This document shows, piece by piece, positions 7,367 through 54,385 of a stretch of 64,000 bases of DNA; within the stretch, counting starts at the first letter, position 1, and each line of letters begins with the position of its first letter. The translations under genes were made by a program, and so were the position numbers. The notes under the pieces were generated by a model, which was given only the letters and a program-made list of their open reading frames with translations, searched no databases and was not told the DNA's origin. The stretch lies in IMG/VR virus record IMGVR_UViG_3300048998_000202. The stretch is one strand, 5' to 3'. The DNA is from a virus (Duplodnaviria > Caudoviricetes).

Positions 7367-7396
7367 AAGCTACTCCAAGAATTGTTGGAGTGTCAA
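7367..7396 (-). promoter_or_regulatory. promoter/operator copy
   Basis: TTGACA-CTCCAACAATTCTTGGAG-TAGCTT. Confidence 0.8.
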
Positions 7397-7740
7397 GAGG
7401 CGATCGGCGTGGAGGCGGGCAGATCCTCCGCCTTGCGCTGCTCGTACGCTACGAATTCGGCGATGCACACCTGAGCCAGGGCATTCAGGCGCTGCGCCCA
7501 GGCGCGGCCCTCCTCGCTCACTTCCTTGTCCTCCCTGACCATCGCGGTGATCCGGAGCAGGATGTCGGTCTCCTCCTCGCCGAGGGCGATGGCCAGCCAC
7601 CGCTGGGACTCGCCCGCGTCGCTGGAACCGAACTTCGGGCTGTCGGGGGTGATCTCGGGGACGAAGCCGTTCATGGCCTCGTCCCGGTCTCCCCGCAGAG
7701 GAACGATGAACATGTGAGGATATGTGGGCTCGGTCATCAA
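7393..7740 (-). CDS. hypothetical protein
   Basis: ORF in operon context. Confidence 0.7.
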   Translation of the reverse strand: MMTEPTYPHMFIVPLRGDRDEAMNGFVPEITPDSPKFGSSDAGESQRWLAIALGEEETDILLRITAMVREDKEVSEEGRAWAQRLNALAQVCIAEFVAYEQRKAEDLPASTPIAS

Positions 7741-8701: not shown

Positions 8702-8731
8702 AGACTACTCCAACAATCCTTGGAGGGTCAA
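8702..8731 (-). promoter_or_regulatory. promoter/operator copy
   Basis: TTGACC-CTCCAAGGATTGTTGGAG-TAGTCT. Confidence 0.8.
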
Positions 8732-8738
8732 TGGTCAA

Positions 8739-10256: not shown

Positions 10257-10286
10257 ACACTACTCCAGGAATCCTTGGAGTGTCAA
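10257..10286 (-). promoter_or_regulatory. promoter/operator copy (best consensus)
   Basis: TTGACA-CTCCAAGGATTCCTGGAG-TAGTGT. Confidence 0.85.
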
Positions 10287-10807
10287 TCCTCTATGGAGAG
10301 CACCCGGCGGACCGCCCGGACGGTCGCAGTCTTCACGAAACTCTCCGGAGTGAGATCTGCCTTCTCTGCGGCCAGGAGCAACGTGTCCCGCTCATCCGAT
10401 CGAAAGGACACCATCAACGAGAAACCCGTCCGCATGCCCTCCTGCTCGGCCACCACATACGCCAGGATCTTGGCCGGGTCCAGAGTCCAGCCCAGGGGCT
10501 GGCCTGCTCCGCAGTGACCATCGCACTCCCCTGCCGGGTGGCTCAGACATCCCACGCAGATGCATCCCCGGGAGATCGCCTCCCGGGCCTGCTCGGCCAG
10601 CGCTTGGACGGTGACCTCCTGCCCGCAGTCCTTGCACCCCACAGTGAACTTCCCCGGGTCCCAGGCGATGGAATGGGCCGGATGCTCACACGGAGGAGAC
10701 AGCGCCTTGTCGCACTGGCCCCATACCCTCGTGTGCCCAAGCTGGTTGAAGCACGTGCGGGAACAGCCCCAGTACTCCTCGGGTACAGGACCAGGACGTC
10801 GTTTCAC
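10283..10807 (-). CDS. Cys-rich hypothetical protein
   Basis: likely GTG start 10807 overlapping the TAG of the upstream ORF. Confidence 0.55.
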   Translation of the reverse strand: MKRRPGPVPEEYWGCSRTCFNQLGHTRVWGQCDKALSPPCEHPAHSIAWDPGKFTVGCKDCGQEVTVQALAEQAREAISRGCICVGCLSHPAGECDGHCGAGQPLGWTLDPAKILAYVVAEQEGMRTGFSLMVSFRSDERDTLLLAAEKADLTPESFVKTATVRAVRRVLSIED

Positions 10808-12402: not shown

Positions 12403-12432
12403 ACGCTACTACAAGCATTCCTAGAGCGTCAA
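12403..12432 (-). promoter_or_regulatory. promoter/operator copy
   Basis: TTGACG-CTCTAGGAATGCTTGTAG-TAGCGT. Confidence 0.75.
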
Positions 12433-13298: not shown

Positions 13299-13328
13299 AG
13301 GATACCCCAGGAATCCTTGGAGGGGTAG
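13299..13328 (-). promoter_or_regulatory. promoter/operator copy (weak -35)
   Basis: CTACCC-CTCCAAGGATTCCTGGGG-TATCCT. Confidence 0.6.
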
Positions 13329-13331
13329 ACG

Positions 13332-15354: not shown

Positions 15355-15384
15355 ACGTTACTCCAAGGATTCTTGGAGCGCTAC
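15355..15384 (-). promoter_or_regulatory. promoter/operator copy
   Basis: GTAGCG-CTCCAAGAATCCTTGGAG-TAACGT. Confidence 0.65.
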
Positions 15385-16297: not shown

Positions 16298-16327
16298 AGG
16301 TTACCCCAAGAATCCTTGGTACTACAA
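16298..16327 (-). promoter_or_regulatory. promoter/operator copy
   Basis: TTGTAG-TACCAAGGATTCTTGGGG-TAACCT. Confidence 0.65.
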
Positions 16328-49762: not shown

Positions 49763-49792
49763 AGACTACACCAACAATCCTTGGAGTGGGAA
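49763..49792 (-). promoter_or_regulatory. promoter/operator copy
   Basis: TTCCCA-CTCCAAGGATTGTTGGTG-TAGTCT. Confidence 0.7.
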
Positions 49793-49857: not shown

Positions 49858-50997
49858 TTGCGTGTACGATCCCCCACAGGCCGAGGTGCTGGGACGGGAA
49901 TCCCAACCACCTCACAGGCCAGCCCCACATCGACGAAAGACGGGCCTGCGTTGAAGTTGTCTTCACACCGTAGCGGAAGCATCCCGACGAGTCACGTCGA
50001 TCAAGGTGTTGACGACGTCAATGCCGACCATCCGGTCTACGACATCACCCGCGCACTCGCCGACGCGGTGGTCTCCCCCGCCGAAGCCCGGGTCGCCCTG
50101 GCGCTGGTCCTCCACAGCCCTCAGGGGCTACGACAGATCGAGCTGACGTCCGGGGTCTGCGACGACTCGATCCTGAAGATCCTCCCCGAGGCCGGGGCCG
50201 GGACGACGCTGCTCTCCTGTTCCAACCGAGGGCAGTTCTCGTATGACGAGACCGAACGCCGGGCCATGTCCCTGCACGTCAGGCGTTACCGGACATCGGT
50301 CGAGCACCTCTGGTTCTTCTCTTCTACTACTGCTAAAGAAGTCCAGGAGATTAAGGATTCTAAAGATCCTAAGAATGTAGAACCCAGAGGTGCTCGACCG
50401 ATGTCCGGTGTGGAACTGAAGGCCCTGGACCCAGCCCTGGACCTCTGGAACAACCCCTCGGAGTACCACCGAGGAGCTGAGCGCTTCGGGGATGCTGGAT
50501 GGGTCCTGGCCATGGTGACGAGGATGAAAGCAACCCCGTTCACTCTGGACGAGCTGAGCAGAATCCTCCGTGTGGGTGAACGGCAGGTCCGCCGGATCAT
50601 CGACCGCCTGGCCGCCTCGGGCTACGCCTCCCGGGTCCGGGAGGGCCGCAGGGTCCAGGTCCTCGTGGACTTCTCGTACCTGACGACCGAGGAAGGCCAG
50701 AACGACTACCTGAAGACCAACCGTCGGGCGGCGAAGACCCGGATCCAGCAGCACGAGGGGAACGCGGTCAAACGCCTGGGAACCAAGATCGGCAGGGACG
50801 TCCGAGAGATGTGGGAGCGCCGCAAGACGGAGCTTCAGATGTTCCGAGACTGGGCCGAGATGAGTGGCAGCCGCTGCTGGGCGCCCCTGATCAAGATCTT
50901 GGAGCACAAGTCCCGGAAGGAAGATCGGAAAAACGGCCTGACCCGCTGGGAGGCCGAGGACCGGATCTACAACTACTTGAAGCCCCTGACGGAGTAA
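49858..50997 (+). CDS. winged-HTH protein, putative replication initiator (true start probably downstream of 49858)
   Basis: TLDELSRILRVGERQVRRIIDRLAASGY wHTH; internal AT-rich segment. Confidence 0.6.
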   Translation: MRVRSPTGRGAGTGIPTTSQASPTSTKDGPALKLSSHRSGSIPTSHVDQGVDDVNADHPVYDITRALADAVVSPAEARVALALVLHSPQGLRQIELTSGVCDDSILKILPEAGAGTTLLSCSNRGQFSYDETERRAMSLHVRRYRTSVEHLWFFSSTTAKEVQEIKDSKDPKNVEPRGARPMSGVELKALDPALDLWNNPSEYHRGAERFGDAGWVLAMVTRMKATPFTLDELSRILRVGERQVRRIIDRLAASGYASRVREGRRVQVLVDFSYLTTEEGQNDYLKTNRRAAKTRIQQHEGNAVKRLGTKIGRDVREMWERRKTELQMFRDWAEMSGSRCWAPLIKILEHKSRKEDRKNGLTRWEAEDRIYNYLKPLTE

Positions 50998-51066: not shown

Positions 51067-51963
51067 GTGACGATCGAGCGCAGGGCCTCGCCCTTCGACT
51101 CCATCCGGTACGTGGATCCGGACTTCGGCGAGTGCTGGTACGCCCGGGAACTGATGCCGCTGATGGGGTACTCCCTGTGGCGCCACTTCAACTCCGTCAT
51201 CGGCCGGGCCCGGACCTCCATGAGCAACGACGGCCACGACGTCCGGGAGCACTTCTGGCTGATCAAACGGCCTGCCGAGGTTAATGTCGACCGGTCGACA
51301 AAAACCTCTGACCAGGGAGGACGTCCCTCTGTCGACTTTCGACTGAGCCGCCACGCCTGCTACTTCATCGCCATGAACGGCGACCCGAAGAAAGAGCAGG
51401 TAGCGCTCGCGCAGGGCTACTTCGTCGGCCAGACGGTGAAGATGGAGCAGATCGAGAGGGCTATCCAGGCGCCCCCATCTCCTCCCGTGGCGCTTCCGCC
51501 GATGCCCAGTCACATCGAAGCCCTGCGGGGCTGGGCGGACGCCCTGGAGGGCCAGCAGAGGGCCGAGCAGGTCGCTCTGGAGGCCCAGCGCCTCGCGGAG
51601 GAACTGCGCCCCCCTGCGGAGGCGTGGAACGCCCTGGCGGCAGCCGGAGGGGACTGCTCGGTGGCCGAGGCCGCCGCGATCCTCAACCGGGATCCCGGCA
51701 TCGTCACCGGTCCGGCCCGGCTGTTCCGGTGGCTGCGTGAGATAGGCATCGTCTACCGGCGGCCCAACGATCAACTCGTGCCGTACTCCCAGCACCTGAC
51801 GCACGTACGGCTCCGGCCGACCAACGGGGGCGCCACCGAGGTCCGGATCACGCCGGACGGGCTGGTGTGGATTCAGCAGCGGATGCGTCAGGAGCAGCAG
51901 CGTCCGGCACTGACGATCGTGCCGGACCAGAAAGCCGATGTGGTTCCGATACGTAGGACCTGA
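51067..51963 (+). CDS. phage antirepressor (DinD/Bro-N + KilAC/ANT)
   Basis: WYARELMPLMGY..W..F, LSRHACYFIAMNGDPKK, EALRGWAD, SVAEAAAIL..RLFRWL..ITPDG. Confidence 0.9.
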   Translation: MTIERRASPFDSIRYVDPDFGECWYARELMPLMGYSLWRHFNSVIGRARTSMSNDGHDVREHFWLIKRPAEVNVDRSTKTSDQGGRPSVDFRLSRHACYFIAMNGDPKKEQVALAQGYFVGQTVKMEQIERAIQAPPSPPVALPPMPSHIEALRGWADALEGQQRAEQVALEAQRLAEELRPPAEAWNALAAAGGDCSVAEAAAILNRDPGIVTGPARLFRWLREIGIVYRRPNDQLVPYSQHLTHVRLRPTNGGATEVRITPDGLVWIQQRMRQEQQRPALTIVPDQKADVVPIRRT

Positions 51964-51979
51964 TAGAGTCAAGTCTTGC

Positions 51980-52033
51980 AGGGCACGGTAGGGCTAGGCT
52001 AGGCAAGGCCCGGCGCGGCAGGGCACGGCATGG
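51980..52033 (+). repeat. degenerate pentanucleotide (GGYNN)n tract
   Basis: GGCAC GGTAG GGCTA GGCTA GGCAA GGCCC GGCGC GGCAG GGCAC GGCAT GG. Confidence 0.85.
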
Positions 52034-52034
52034 A

Positions 52035-52062
52035 AGGGCGTCATCCTTCGGGGTGGCGCCCT
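52035..52062 (+). terminator. terminator with cUUCGg loop
   Basis: AGGGCGTCATCC-TTCG-GGGTGGCGCCCT. Confidence 0.75.
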
Positions 52063-52084
52063 CAGTCGTTTGACCACAGACATG

Positions 52085-52785
52085 GCGAAGGCCCCCAGCT
52101 CCACGAGTTGCTGGGGGCCCTGCTGTGCCCGGATCGGGGCCGCCCAGGCGGACGGGCTATGCTCCGCGTTCGCTGCCTCTGCGCTTGACGACGCAGTACC
52201 GGCGTAACGAGGACTTCCCCTACGCCCTTGTTTTCCGGGCTGGCAAGAGGACGTAGCTCGCCATGGTCGGCTCGGATGTGCGTCCGAGGTGCCCGGTCAC
52301 GCCGTCGAGTTCTCCCAAGACGGCGCGGATCTATGGTGCCCCGTTCCGGCCACAGGAGGGGCGGGCCTGCCGTTCGGACGGTCTAACGAGACCGCACGGC
52401 CTGAGACACGCGAGACCGTGCTTCCCCTCAGGGGCCGACTTCCCGGAACTCGAAGGGGAACCCAGGTCATCGGCTGATCTCACGTGCGTCTTGGGTGCCC
52501 CCATATGGCCACAGGAGGGGACGAACCTGATGTGCGGGAAACGGAAGCAACCCTGGCCGTGTGTCCGACAACTGCGAAGAAGCGGACACCGTACGGGGAA
52601 GGCGATTTGCACGCCGACACGAACTCCCTAGGTGGGACATCGGGAGGTGACGCGGGCTCCGCCCCGAACTCCCACCGGGGTTTCACCCTCCCCGCTCGGG
52701 CGACCAGAGACTTCTTCAGCTCCTGGTCGCCGTCGCGCCGTGCATCCTACCGAGCTGATCCACGAACATCGGCTCGGGCTGACGA
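52085..52785 (-). ncRNA. candidate large structured non-coding RNA (~700 nt)
   Basis: no credible ORF, ~10 hairpins, promoter at 52791-52820, terminal hairpin 52090-52119; strand inferred from promoter. Confidence 0.55.
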
Positions 52786-52790
52786 GAAAG

Positions 52791-52820
52791 ACGCTACTCC
52801 AACGAATGCCGGAGTAGCAA
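52791..52820 (-). promoter_or_regulatory. promoter/operator copy firing into a gene-free region
   Basis: TTGCTA-CTCCGGCATTCGTTGGAG-TAGCGT. Confidence 0.7.
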
Positions 52821-52825
52821 GTCGA

Positions 52826-54385
52826 TCACGTCATCCCCTGAGTCAAGATCTCCCGCCGCATGGACGCCGTCAGGAACTCCTCGCCGGTTACCCCGTGGCC
52901 CAGCAGGGCGTCCGAGTGGCCGTTGCCCCGCAACATGCTGTACATCAGCGAGACCTCGACGGACTTCTGGACCAGCATGCTACGGATCGTCAACGACGGG
53001 CCCCCGGAGCCGATCCTGGAGGCCCGGTTGATCCGTTGGGTCCGCAGGCCGAATGTCGTGGCGAGATCGTATTCGACCACGTAGGACGCCTCGGGCAGGT
53101 TGATCCCCCGGGCAACCGCGTCTGAGGCGAGCAGGATCGCACCCCCCTGATGCTTTTTAAAATGATCGATGCCGTCCTCCTCGTCATGGGTGAAGACGGG
53201 GAGGTGTCGAGCCGTCAGAGCCGCACGCAGGTGTGGGATCACCGAGGGGCCGAAGAAGCTGAAGACCAGCACCTTGGCGTCCTGGCTCTTGACGATCGGC
53301 TCTACGTATTCCACGAGGCGATCGGTCTTCGCCGACGGCAACGCCCGGATGTAGTCCTCGCCGTACTCCTCCACGAGGGCTCTGGCGAGCTTGGACTTGC
53401 CCACGGTGGCTGAGTGGATGAGGGCCGCAGGGTGGGCACAGATCTGCCTCAGAGCGGTCATCTGGCCCGGGGCGTCCAGTTCCTCGACGAAGTCATAGAG
53501 CTTGCGCTGATCCCCCTCCAGATCGATCCACAAGGACTCCTCAGTCGTGGCCGGGAACTGGTCGATGACGTCAGCGTCGGTCTTGGACTTCGCCAGCACC
53601 ATCGGAGAGCACAGGTCGGCGAACTCCCCCATCCGGAAGTCGTGGTACCGGGCCCGGCCGTATACGTCCCTCCCCCGTACGAAGTACTTCTCGAACTCAC
53701 CTATGCGCGGCATCAATGCCGGTCGCAAGAGCCGCAGTTGGTTGAATGAGTCCTCCCAGTTCTTGCGGACCGGTGTCGCGGTCAGCATGACCACGGGGAT
53801 TTTAAAAACCTTCCGGAGAGTCTTGAGGACGTGTTCGTACGATCGATAGTTCATGGCCGATCGGTTGCTCAGCCGGTCGGCCTCGTCAAAGATGATCATG
53901 GGGTGTCGCGCATGATCGAAGATCCTGGTGAGCAGGTCACCAGAGGAGAGCTTCCGGCCTTTGCGGCCCGTCTTCTCGGCCTGAACCAGATCCGCTTTTC
54001 CGGTCTCGAACGTGGTGATGAGCACCTGCGGCAGACCGTCCCGGGCCAGCTTCCCCTTGCGGGATGGTCCGTGGTGGATCCGAACGTCCAGCTTGGTGAA
54101 CTCCTCGAAGTCTGCCTTCCACTCCTTGAGCTTCCCTCGCTCACAGACGAGCAGGACGAAGTCCATGACATCGTCCTCGAAGCCGAGTGTGGCCAGCCGC
54201 ATGGCAGCGTGGGACTTCCCCAAGCCGGTGTCCCAGACGAACATCCATCCCGGAATTCCGGACTGGATTCCTAGGTACGCCTGTGCGATGTCCTCGGCCT
54301 GGAACGGATACAGGCCGCGAGGACTGTAGTAGAGAGCCCCCTCCGGCCAGGAGCTGGAGGGGGCCTCAGTGACCGTGGCCGTCAC
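52826..54385 (-). CDS. SNF2-like SF2 helicase
   Basis: LYPFQ, WDTGLGKS, FDEAD, LTATP, RGINL, QRINRASRIG. Confidence 0.85.
   Translation of the reverse strand: MTATVTEAPSSSWPEGALYYSPRGLYPFQAEDIAQAYLGIQSGIPGWMFVWDTGLGKSHAAMRLATLGFEDDVMDFVLLVCERGKLKEWKADFEEFTKLDVRIHHGPSRKGKLARDGLPQVLITTFETGKADLVQAEKTGRKGRKLSSGDLLTRIFDHARHPMIIFDEADRLSNRSAMNYRSYEHVLKTLRKVFKIPVVMLTATPVRKNWEDSFNQLRLLRPALMPRIGEFEKYFVRGRDVYGRARYHDFRMGEFADLCSPMVLAKSKTDADVIDQFPATTEESLWIDLEGDQRKLYDFVEELDAPGQMTALRQICAHPAALIHSATVGKSKLARALVEEYGEDYIRALPSAKTDRLVEYVEPIVKSQDAKVLVFSFFGPSVIPHLRAALTARHLPVFTHDEEDGIDHFKKHQGGAILLASDAVARGINLPEASYVVEYDLATTFGLRTQRINRASRIGSGGPSLTIRSMLVQKSVEVSLMYSMLRGNGHSDALLGHGVTGEEFLTASMRREILTQGMT

Follow-up and report, generated by a model that had tools for sequence, protein, structure and literature searches.

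A structured RNA gene is very probably encoded on the minus strand of a gene-free gap in the window, the 64,000-nucleotide stretch of Caudoviricetes phage DNA (record IMGVR_UViG_3300048998_000202) analysed here, where it lies between an SNF2-family helicase gene and a Bro-N/ANT antirepressor gene. The best explanation of the whole, including the mechanism proposed below, is a new family of modular non-coding RNAs of ~700 nucleotides (nt), a reading that is given a probability of about 70%. Its modules are a 5′ hairpin region, a 12-bp hairpin, a cloverleaf with kissing arms, a domain called M3, two to three H-type pseudoknots and a pseudoknotted 3′ domain. An earlier reading of the same letters, made without database searches (the sequence-only reading), had proposed a large structured phage non-coding RNA at this place; the proposal is supported by homologues, by covariation, by a non-coding signature and by the absence of any matching Rfam family. 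To our knowledge, bacteria and phages have yielded very few RNAs above 500 nt whose structure is dense and covarying, and the phage-borne GOLLD and ROOL have yet to be assigned a function even though cage structures were recently obtained. The present family would add an independent example from high-GC soil actinophages, with a clean promoter-to-end unit.

Relatives were collected through the SNF2 protein, whose metagenomic relatives led to the surrounding DNA in Logan, JGI and NCBI assemblies (pieces of ~8 kb). A unit of ~600-950 nt, running from promoter to terminal helix, occupies the equivalent site in 15 distinct metagenomic phage contigs whose SNF2 proteins are 63-86% identical. The site extends from SNF2, or from genes inserted after SNF2, to the antirepressor gene or a small open reading frame (ORF) preceding it, and the boundaries of the element in the relatives coincide with the promoter and the terminal helix. 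The homologues that the sequence-only reading had proposed to look for between antirepressor and SNF2 genes of related phages therefore exist. A covariance model of the 3′ block, R2, recovers the 15 elements at E values of 1e-24 to 1e-51 and nothing credible elsewhere. The element is absent from L064 (SNF2 59% identical), where guide-RNA-like cassettes and protein genes occupy the site. More distant SNF2 relatives, scanned with nhmmer and both covariance models, gave no further members; GTDB genomes reached through the SNF2 alignment gave only relatives of 35-38% identity, and the larger of the two loci matches neither RNA model. Nothing similar was found in IMG/VR with SNF2 peptide patterns or the conserved RNA motif, and the phage clade seems to be absent from that database. 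DNA similarity was found neither among GenBank phages (distant mode for the region, near mode for 20 kb) nor among PLSDB plasmids. That the family is confined to a single clade of uncultured soil phages, high in GC and large (~150 kb), is supported at the level of sequence.

Helices were tested block by block on structure-blind MAFFT alignments, and for two blocks on covariance-model alignments, with 500 shuffles and a slid-partner control (Table 1). The covariation among homologues that the sequence-only reading had asked for is strong in five separately tested blocks. In all five, 0 of 500 shuffles reach the observed percentage of paired positions or the observed covariation score, figures that overstate significance because the 15 sequences, all from one clade, are related; the slid-partner control, which keeps this relatedness and is the fairer of the two, is equally clear. 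For the 12-bp hairpin Ha and for M3, the pair-count and pair-type measures are matched by a few shuffles. The outer 10-bp stem of M3 reaches 98.9% pairing, 8 of its 10 pairs being compensatory, and helix He of the 3′ domain is 96.7% paired, A-U being replaced by G-C in four sequences. The stems listed by the sequence-only reading fared unevenly. Those at 52271-52288, 52300-52326 and 52699-52731 and the closing hairpin are kept in the relatives, and the three that were counted covary. The stem at 52750-52777 is shared with a single aligned relative (L056), and the one at 52561-52589 is missing from the aligned relatives.

The minus strand folds with a minimum free energy (MFE) of -360.5 kcal/mol (z = -5.2) and the plus strand with -344.9 kcal/mol (z = -3.2), a difference of 15.6 kcal/mol. 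The strand can also be read from the wobble pairs themselves, since the opposite strand would show A.C mismatches in their place. Counts over the paired cells of the tRNA-like module and the 3′ block give 68 G.U against 27 A.C; one U.G pair of M3 is invariant in 9 of 9 sequences; and He, Ha and the acceptor stem each have a position where G.U is the most frequent pair. The G.U excess, the invariant U.G, the orientation of the T-loop and the promoter together fix the minus strand. The view that wobbles suit both strands and that only the promoter indicates the strand, held in the sequence-only reading, is overturned by the G.U/A.C asymmetry, the invariant U.G and the T-loop.

The tRNA-like module (TLM) is the most distinctive of the parts. 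In 13 of the 15 relatives a 7-bp stem sits directly against a 5-bp stem that carries a 7-nt loop, the tRNA-type arrangement of acceptor stem, T stem and T-loop (U..C.A..). The loop reads UGCGAAU in most copies, UGCAAAU in the window and UUCGAAU in two, and the outermost pair of the T stem is mismatched in four copies, the window's included, leaving 4 bp. Pairing in the acceptor stem is complete (100%), 4-6 of the 7 pairs changing in compensatory fashion, and the nucleotide after its 3′ strand is A in 12 of 13 copies, the next one C in all 13. Two further arms between the strands of the 7-bp stem complete a four-way cloverleaf, which MFE folding alone yields in L008, L057 and L018. Their loops are joined by a kissing helix of 6-7 bp that is 92% paired and has four compensatory pairs (A-U/G-C and C-G/U-A exchanges). 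The TLM is not a tRNA. ARAGORN calls no tRNA or tmRNA, and the best score in the Rfam tRNA clan is 14.6 bits (E 9.8), at chance level given a gathering score of 47; the module has no D arm and no anticodon arm with a 7-nt loop, and its middle arms are long, with loops that pair mutually. The module precedes M3 in the window, L001, L003, L005 and L018, and follows it in L057, L058, L060 and L061. It is regarded as a movable insert because its position relative to M3 changes and because it is absent or altered in some relatives; repeated gain, loss or exchange is suggested by these sequences. The copy in L060 (4492-4612) has a different sequence, the canonical UUCGAAU loop and a long insert, and that in L006 (6146-6219) is cut down to 69 nt.

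The pseudoknot module is present in two copies in the window, A and B, which form a direct repeat with 81% identity, and in one to three copies per relative. It consists of stem 1 (NNGG), 3-4 nt, stem 2 (NNNCC), 1 nt, stem 1′ (CCNN), 9-12 nt whose end is often A-rich, and stem 2′ (GGNNN). Across copies and relatives both stems co-vary, stem 1 as CAGG/CCUG, GAGG/CCUC, CUGG/CCAG and CGGG/CCCG, and stem 2 as GCCCC/GGGGC, GAUCC/GGAUC, ACCCC/GGGGU and GACCC/GGGUC. A permissive descriptor gave 138 sense matches against ~88 in shuffles, and a stricter one was adopted because of this high background; it yields 19 matches in the 12.1 kb of element sense strand and 8 in the remaining 835 kb, a ~160-fold enrichment. 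Hairpin S1 was left out of the formal count, since relatives show two register variants. A hammerhead was considered for Ha, whose loop resembles CUGAUGA, and was rejected: the middle bases vary and Rfam is silent.

The 3′ domain contains the pseudoknot PK-C, a pairing classed as such because it crosses helix He. Its complementarity is kept in 12 of 12 relatives in at least five different sequences (CCGGAC/GUCCGG, CUGGAC/GUCCAG, CCGGGA/UCCCGG, GUGCCGG/UCGGCAC and GCAGCAG/UUGCUGC). The sequence-only reading had drawn a pairing at 52220-52256, which is better explained by helix GGCGAG/CUUGCC together with the pseudoknot; the corresponding stem CCUCUUG/CAAGG was rejected because the change of CUUG to CCCG tracks that of the upstream CGAG to CGGG. 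The closing hairpin at 52090-52119 is real and forms the top of a longer terminal helix, whose loop CAACUCGUGGAG is unchanged in 11 of 15 copies, the remaining four departing from it by 1-2 bases. This loop can form CUC-GUG-GAG and resembles a shortened form of the early-gene leader hairpin (ACUCC-N3-GGAG), and competition with that leader for its binding partner is possible. The S1 loop UCGUUA shares CUCGU with it.

Table 1. Features of the RNA element, its promoter family and its neighbours (positions in the window; pairing tests list alignment, percentage paired, percentage in shuffles, range with slid partner and compensatory pairs)
Feature	Position	Strand	Description	Pairing test
SNF2-family helicase gene	52826-54385	minus	High-coordinate neighbour of the gap; stop faces the gap	
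Promoter	52791-52820	minus	-35 TTGCTA (52815-52820); spacer palindrome CTCC-N10-GGAG; -10 TAGCGT (52791-52796)	
Other promoter copies (n = 8)	7367-7397, 8702-8732, 10257-10287, 12403-12432, 13299-13329, 15355-15384, 16298-16327, 49763-49792	minus	Family motif	
Predicted transcript	52079-52784	minus	~705 nt; promoter-to-terminal-helix unit, in 15 contigs; both ends predicted	
Hairpin H1	52750-52777	minus	5′-proximal; MFE fold; similar in L056 only, different hairpins in other relatives	
Hairpin Ha	52699-52731	minus	12-bp stem; loop consensus CUGANRAAG; conserved RACGG ahead	MAFFT: 91.1; 79.6; 33-58; 7/12 (change on both sides)
tRNA-like module (TLM)	52592-52694	minus	7-bp acceptor-like stem stacked on T arm; two arms with kissing loops	MAFFT (A5): 87.5; 68.7; 37-56; 27/38. 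Model-aligned (A6): 88.1; 65.6; 38-54; 25/30
Hairpin GUGUCCG...CGGACAC	52559-52588	minus	MFE fold; no counterpart in alignments of relatives	
Pseudoknot module, copy A	52494-52529	minus	CAGG-n4-UCCCC-U-CCUG-n9-GGGGG; matches H-type descriptor	
Domain M3	52402-52486	minus	9-10 bp outer stem around three inner helices, including a CCCC-UGA-GGGG hairpin	MAFFT: 94.4; 79.5; 27-46; 12/22
Hairpin S1	52378-52395	minus	Conserved loop UCGUUA; seen in alignments	
Pseudoknot module, copy B	52336-52370	minus	CAGG-n3-GCCCC-U-CCUG-n10-GGGGC	
Hc and pseudoknot copy B	52298-52370			MAFFT: 82.1; 73.7; 40-48; 8/16
Hairpin Hc	52298-52327	minus	CGCGCCGUC/GACGGCGUG	76.6 paired; 7/9 pairs change on both sides
Pseudoknot PK-C	52235-52296	minus	CCGGGC (52291-52296) with GCCCGG (52235-52240), across Hd (52271-52288) and He (52242-52262)	
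Conserved 3′ block	52078-52280	minus	Covariance model R2, 208 positions	Model-aligned: 87.8; 72.8; 43-56; 24/33; 0/500 shuffles
Terminal long helix	52082-52125	minus	12-nt loop CAACUCGUGGAG at 52099-52110	Stem compensatory 9/11
Guide-RNA-like cassette	51961-52062	plus	TGATAGAGTCAAG leader, eleven GGY-NN pentamers, hairpin (GGGCGUCAUCC-UUCG-GGGUGGCGCCC)	
Bro-N/ANT antirepressor gene	51067-51963	plus	Low-coordinate neighbour of the gap	

The element is headed by a motif of a recurrent family, TTGNNN and TANNNT separated by an 18-nt spacer with the palindrome CTCC-N10-GGAG. At most of the eight other copies in the window a ribosome site and a start codon follow ~30-45 nt downstream, and at six of the eight a leader GACTCC-N3-GGAGG immediately precedes the start codon; the copy at 52791-52820 is built alike, without the leader, the ribosome site or an ATG. 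It had been described in the sequence-only reading as a full copy of the phage promoter, which holds for the motif and its recurrent family, whereas the literal string TTGCTA-N18-TAGCGT occurs once in the window. All 15 relatives retain a -10 TANNNT with varying inner bases, a -35 TTGNNN and a spacer of 17-18 nt, and such a pattern of conservation is that expected for an actinobacterial promoter. Across these relatives and the eight paralogous copies, the motif has the features of an actinobacterial housekeeping-type promoter, with activity as a prediction. In L057, L058 and L061 it stays at the head of the element, and not with SNF2, despite inserted genes. Judged from these sequences, the element probably has a promoter of its own. 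The 5′ end of the transcript is predicted ~7 nt after the -10, and the 3′ end just past the terminal helix, because conservation stops there. The palindrome CTCC-N10-GGAG looks like an operator, and as it recurs in the promoter copies, control of the whole promoter set by one repressor, the large RNA included, is suggested.

The proposed mechanism starts from this arrangement. The RNA would be transcribed from its own copy of the recurrent, operator-bearing promoter, and would thus be switched together with the protein genes that share it. It would act in trans as a folded RNA and not by base-pairing to a message. The minihelix of acceptor stem and T arm (7 bp + 5 bp) would present the shape read by RNase P, RNase Z, the CCA-adding enzyme and tRNA-directed toxins; given that shape, the module would most likely be excised by RNase P/Z or serve as a handle or decoy for tRNA-binding factors. 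The pseudoknot-rich remainder, with near-invariant loops such as that of the terminal helix, could act as a scaffold on which a protein partner binds or the RNA self-assembles, comparable to GOLLD and ROOL. This tRNA-mimic or scaffold mechanism is tentative, the odds being clearly against it. A somewhat less likely and more specific proposal is that the family constitutes a third, unrelated class of giant phage RNA, which would form an RNA-only or RNA-protein particle whose tRNA mimic and pseudoknots capture, hide or decoy tRNA-directed host factors, these being RNase P, the CCA-adding enzyme and the tRNA-cutting or tRNA-modifying toxins of abortive-infection systems. If this were true, a first functional handle would be available on why large phages carry giant RNAs beside tRNA-type genes, and the tRNA-mimic reading, if it holds, would link giant phage RNAs to the conflict between phage and host over tRNAs. 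The shape of the TLM points to the tRNA machinery, its natural variants (moved, swapped or missing) are ready-made deletion controls, and the repeated pseudoknot unit suits structural work.

Several points weigh against this reading, in addition to the relatedness of the sequences used in the shuffle tests. A generic sigma-70 consensus scan reports no promoter at 52791-52820, because it demands a TATAAT-like -10 where the motif has TANNNT. The promoter palindrome scores as a terminator-like hairpin 5 nt past the SNF2 stop, with a weak U-tract, so read-through from SNF2 is conceivable, and the palindrome may have both promoter and terminator roles. At the other end no U-tract follows the terminal helix, and its terminator role is thus inferred only; both transcript ends and any processing are likewise predicted. 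Stem 2 of the pseudoknot module shows zero compensatory changes among orthologues, and the support for this module comes from the comparison of copies, partly via a descriptor that requires pairing. In L002 and L056 (2 of 15) the TLM is absent, L006 has a shortened copy and L060 one of another sequence type; the module therefore cannot be essential to the core. Nothing ties the large RNA to a partner protein.

Part of these points feeds the strongest of the alternatives, itself improbable, in which the SNF2 (or SNF2-ParA) transcript carries the element as its long, structured 3′ tail and the 'promoter' is an attenuating hairpin. The structures would then lend stability to the upstream message or mark points of processing, the TLM being cut by RNase P. 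In its favour are the shared strand, the start 5 nt past the SNF2 stop and the palindrome, whose weak U-tract makes read-through plausible; tRNA-like elements are also known processing signals. However, a mere tail does not account for the retention of -35, -10 and spacing in 15 of 15 relatives while inner bases vary, for the position of the motif before a ribosome site and start codon at most of its eight other sites, or for its remaining with the element where genes separate the latter from SNF2; moreover, ~700 nt of covarying structure far exceeds what a stabiliser needs.

An RNA gene with its own promoter being preferred, its relation to known families has to be considered. Rfam contains no family that reaches its gathering score in the window or in 12 relatives, and at E ≤ 10 the elements of the window, L060 and L057 give only chance-level matches, GOLLD and ROOL not among them; the novelty claimed beforehand therefore stands. 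Since both Rfam and ARAGORN come up empty, the element is taken as a new family, similar in kind to GOLLD and ROOL. These are phage RNAs often found near tRNA islands, tRNAs being sometimes located in the GOLLD linker, and GOLLD itself, whose function is unknown, ranges from several hundred to >800 nt, with many helices and pseudoknots, a conserved 3′ part and a less conserved 5′ part (10.1101/2024.12.08.627333). Like GOLLD, the present element is phage-borne, ~600-950 nt long and best conserved in its 3′ block, with a tRNA-shaped module at varying places. Unlike GOLLD, it is without an Rfam match, its insert is a tRNA mimic lacking the anticodon arm, and it is carried by high-GC soil phages; GOLLD forms a 14-mer cage, whereas the element is known from sequence alone. 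The resemblance is one of architecture only, with no evidence of membership. With ROOL (Rumen-Originating, Ornate, Large; ~600 nt) the element shares phage encoding, multiple pseudoknots and the lack of a known protein partner, but neither an Rfam match nor motifs; ROOL often lies near RNA genes, and the neighbours here are guide-RNA-like cassettes, not tRNAs. That the element is a very divergent GOLLD or ROOL member beyond the reach of covariance models is very unlikely: the common lifestyle and size class, the contrast of a conserved 3′ part with a variable 5′ part and middle, and the tRNA-shaped insert at varying positions, recalling the tRNAs of the GOLLD linker, speak for it, and the Rfam searches, together with the absence of any shared motif, speak against it.

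Other RNAs with tRNA-like parts offer further comparisons. YrlA of M. smegmatis is a tRNA-like RNA with a 7-bp acceptor stem that is cut by RNase P and receives CCA (PMC4201824). The element resembles YrlA-type Y RNAs of bacteria and phages in that an RNA other than a tRNA carries a domain imitating the acceptor stem and T arm of tRNA. YrlA, however, is ~100-200 nt long, adjoins the Ro60 gene, forms a Ro-binding stem from its ends and has a D arm and a loop-closed acceptor stem, whereas the module here is open-ended inside a 700-nt RNA, its middle arms kiss and Rfam gives no match. No TROVE (Ro60) gene is adjacent, the neighbours being SNF2, ANT and in some relatives a ParA-like gene. In tmRNA and in the 3′ tRNA-like structures of plant RNA viruses, an acceptor/T-arm unit and a series of H-type pseudoknots are combined in one RNA, and the element joins the same two components. 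A tmRNA forms its acceptor stem from the termini of the complete molecule and carries a tag reading frame, while the element has an internal module and no conserved frame; the plant viral elements form a genomic 3′ end finishing in CCA, while the module here is internal and followed by A-C-(G/U). Membership in GOLLD, ROOL, tRNA, tmRNA or YrlA fails the tests run, and the likeness to each is one of kind.

Explanations at the level of DNA are slightly less likely again than a divergent GOLLD or ROOL. In these, the region would be a replication origin, a ParA partition site or a packaging site, with the 35-bp modules as protein-binding sites, as might fit a module repeated 2-3 times and the ParA-like gene and small ORF directly upstream in L057, L058 and L061. 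Yet compensatory changes keep pairing and not sequence, G.U is tolerated on one strand only, T-loop and acceptor geometry would be meaningless in duplex DNA, and the window's copy has no adjacent ParA gene. The structured origin, which had been the alternative of the sequence-only reading, is disfavoured by this strand-specific pairing and by the lack of iteron arrays and of an AT-rich dip in the region.

The statement that 52063-52825 holds no credible gene is borne out. The gap (51964-52825, 862 nt) is flanked by the stops of two convergent genes; codon-phase GC is flat over 51960-52800, whereas the GC-richest phase of the flanking genes reaches 0.85-0.95 in a window of 65% G+C. No ORF is conserved among the relatives, in which the longest ORFs shift strand, frame and place, and the six frames are all equally weak in tblastn. 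Indels between pairs of elements are multiples of 3 in 25% of cases and not in 75%, and substitution rates by phase are 0.42, 0.44 and 0.43; the conserved translated ORF against which the sequence-only reading had asked for a check does not exist in these comparisons. Mechanical ORFs of 122 aa (52263-52631, plus) and 93 aa (52331-52612, minus) do lie in the gap, but given this flat, frame-indifferent pattern one or more small proteins missed by gene callers are a highly improbable explanation, the least likely of all.

At the low-coordinate side of the gap, positions 51961-52062 form a guide-RNA-like cassette of their own, outside the large RNA element. The cassette overlaps the stop codon of the antirepressor gene and convergently abuts the 3′ end of the large RNA. 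A tie of the large RNA to the VIPR guide-RNA system was considered and rejected, the VIPR paper naming no large RNA partner. In L064 (5073-5450) three or four pentamer cassettes take the place of the large RNA, and in L001 (5570-5660) and L003 (5564-5680) an extra pentamer cassette lies between SNF2 and the RNA promoter; the intergenic site has the look of a common insertion point for small RNA genes.

The neighbourhood varies in other respects among the relatives. The ParA-like (CbiA/MipZ) gene and small ORF between SNF2 and the RNA promoter (L057:4693-5606, L058:4833-5743 and L061:4669-5582) are insertions that hint at a plasmid-like prophage state in the clade. The SNF2 protein of L056 (3001-5589) has 862 aa and a LAGLIDADG-type domain, probably an intein, as do P0015, P0017, P0041 and P0047. 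Between the RNA 3′ end and the antirepressor, L056 (6838-7223) and L060 (5131-5403) have small ORFs with DnaJ-type CXXCXGXG zinc-finger motifs; the insertion in L002 (alignment A1, columns 1110-1340) also holds such an ORF, and the window has none. Elsewhere in the window, G+C falls to 0.57-0.59 at 50100-50550, within ORF 49858-50997, which has weak helix-turn-helix matches.

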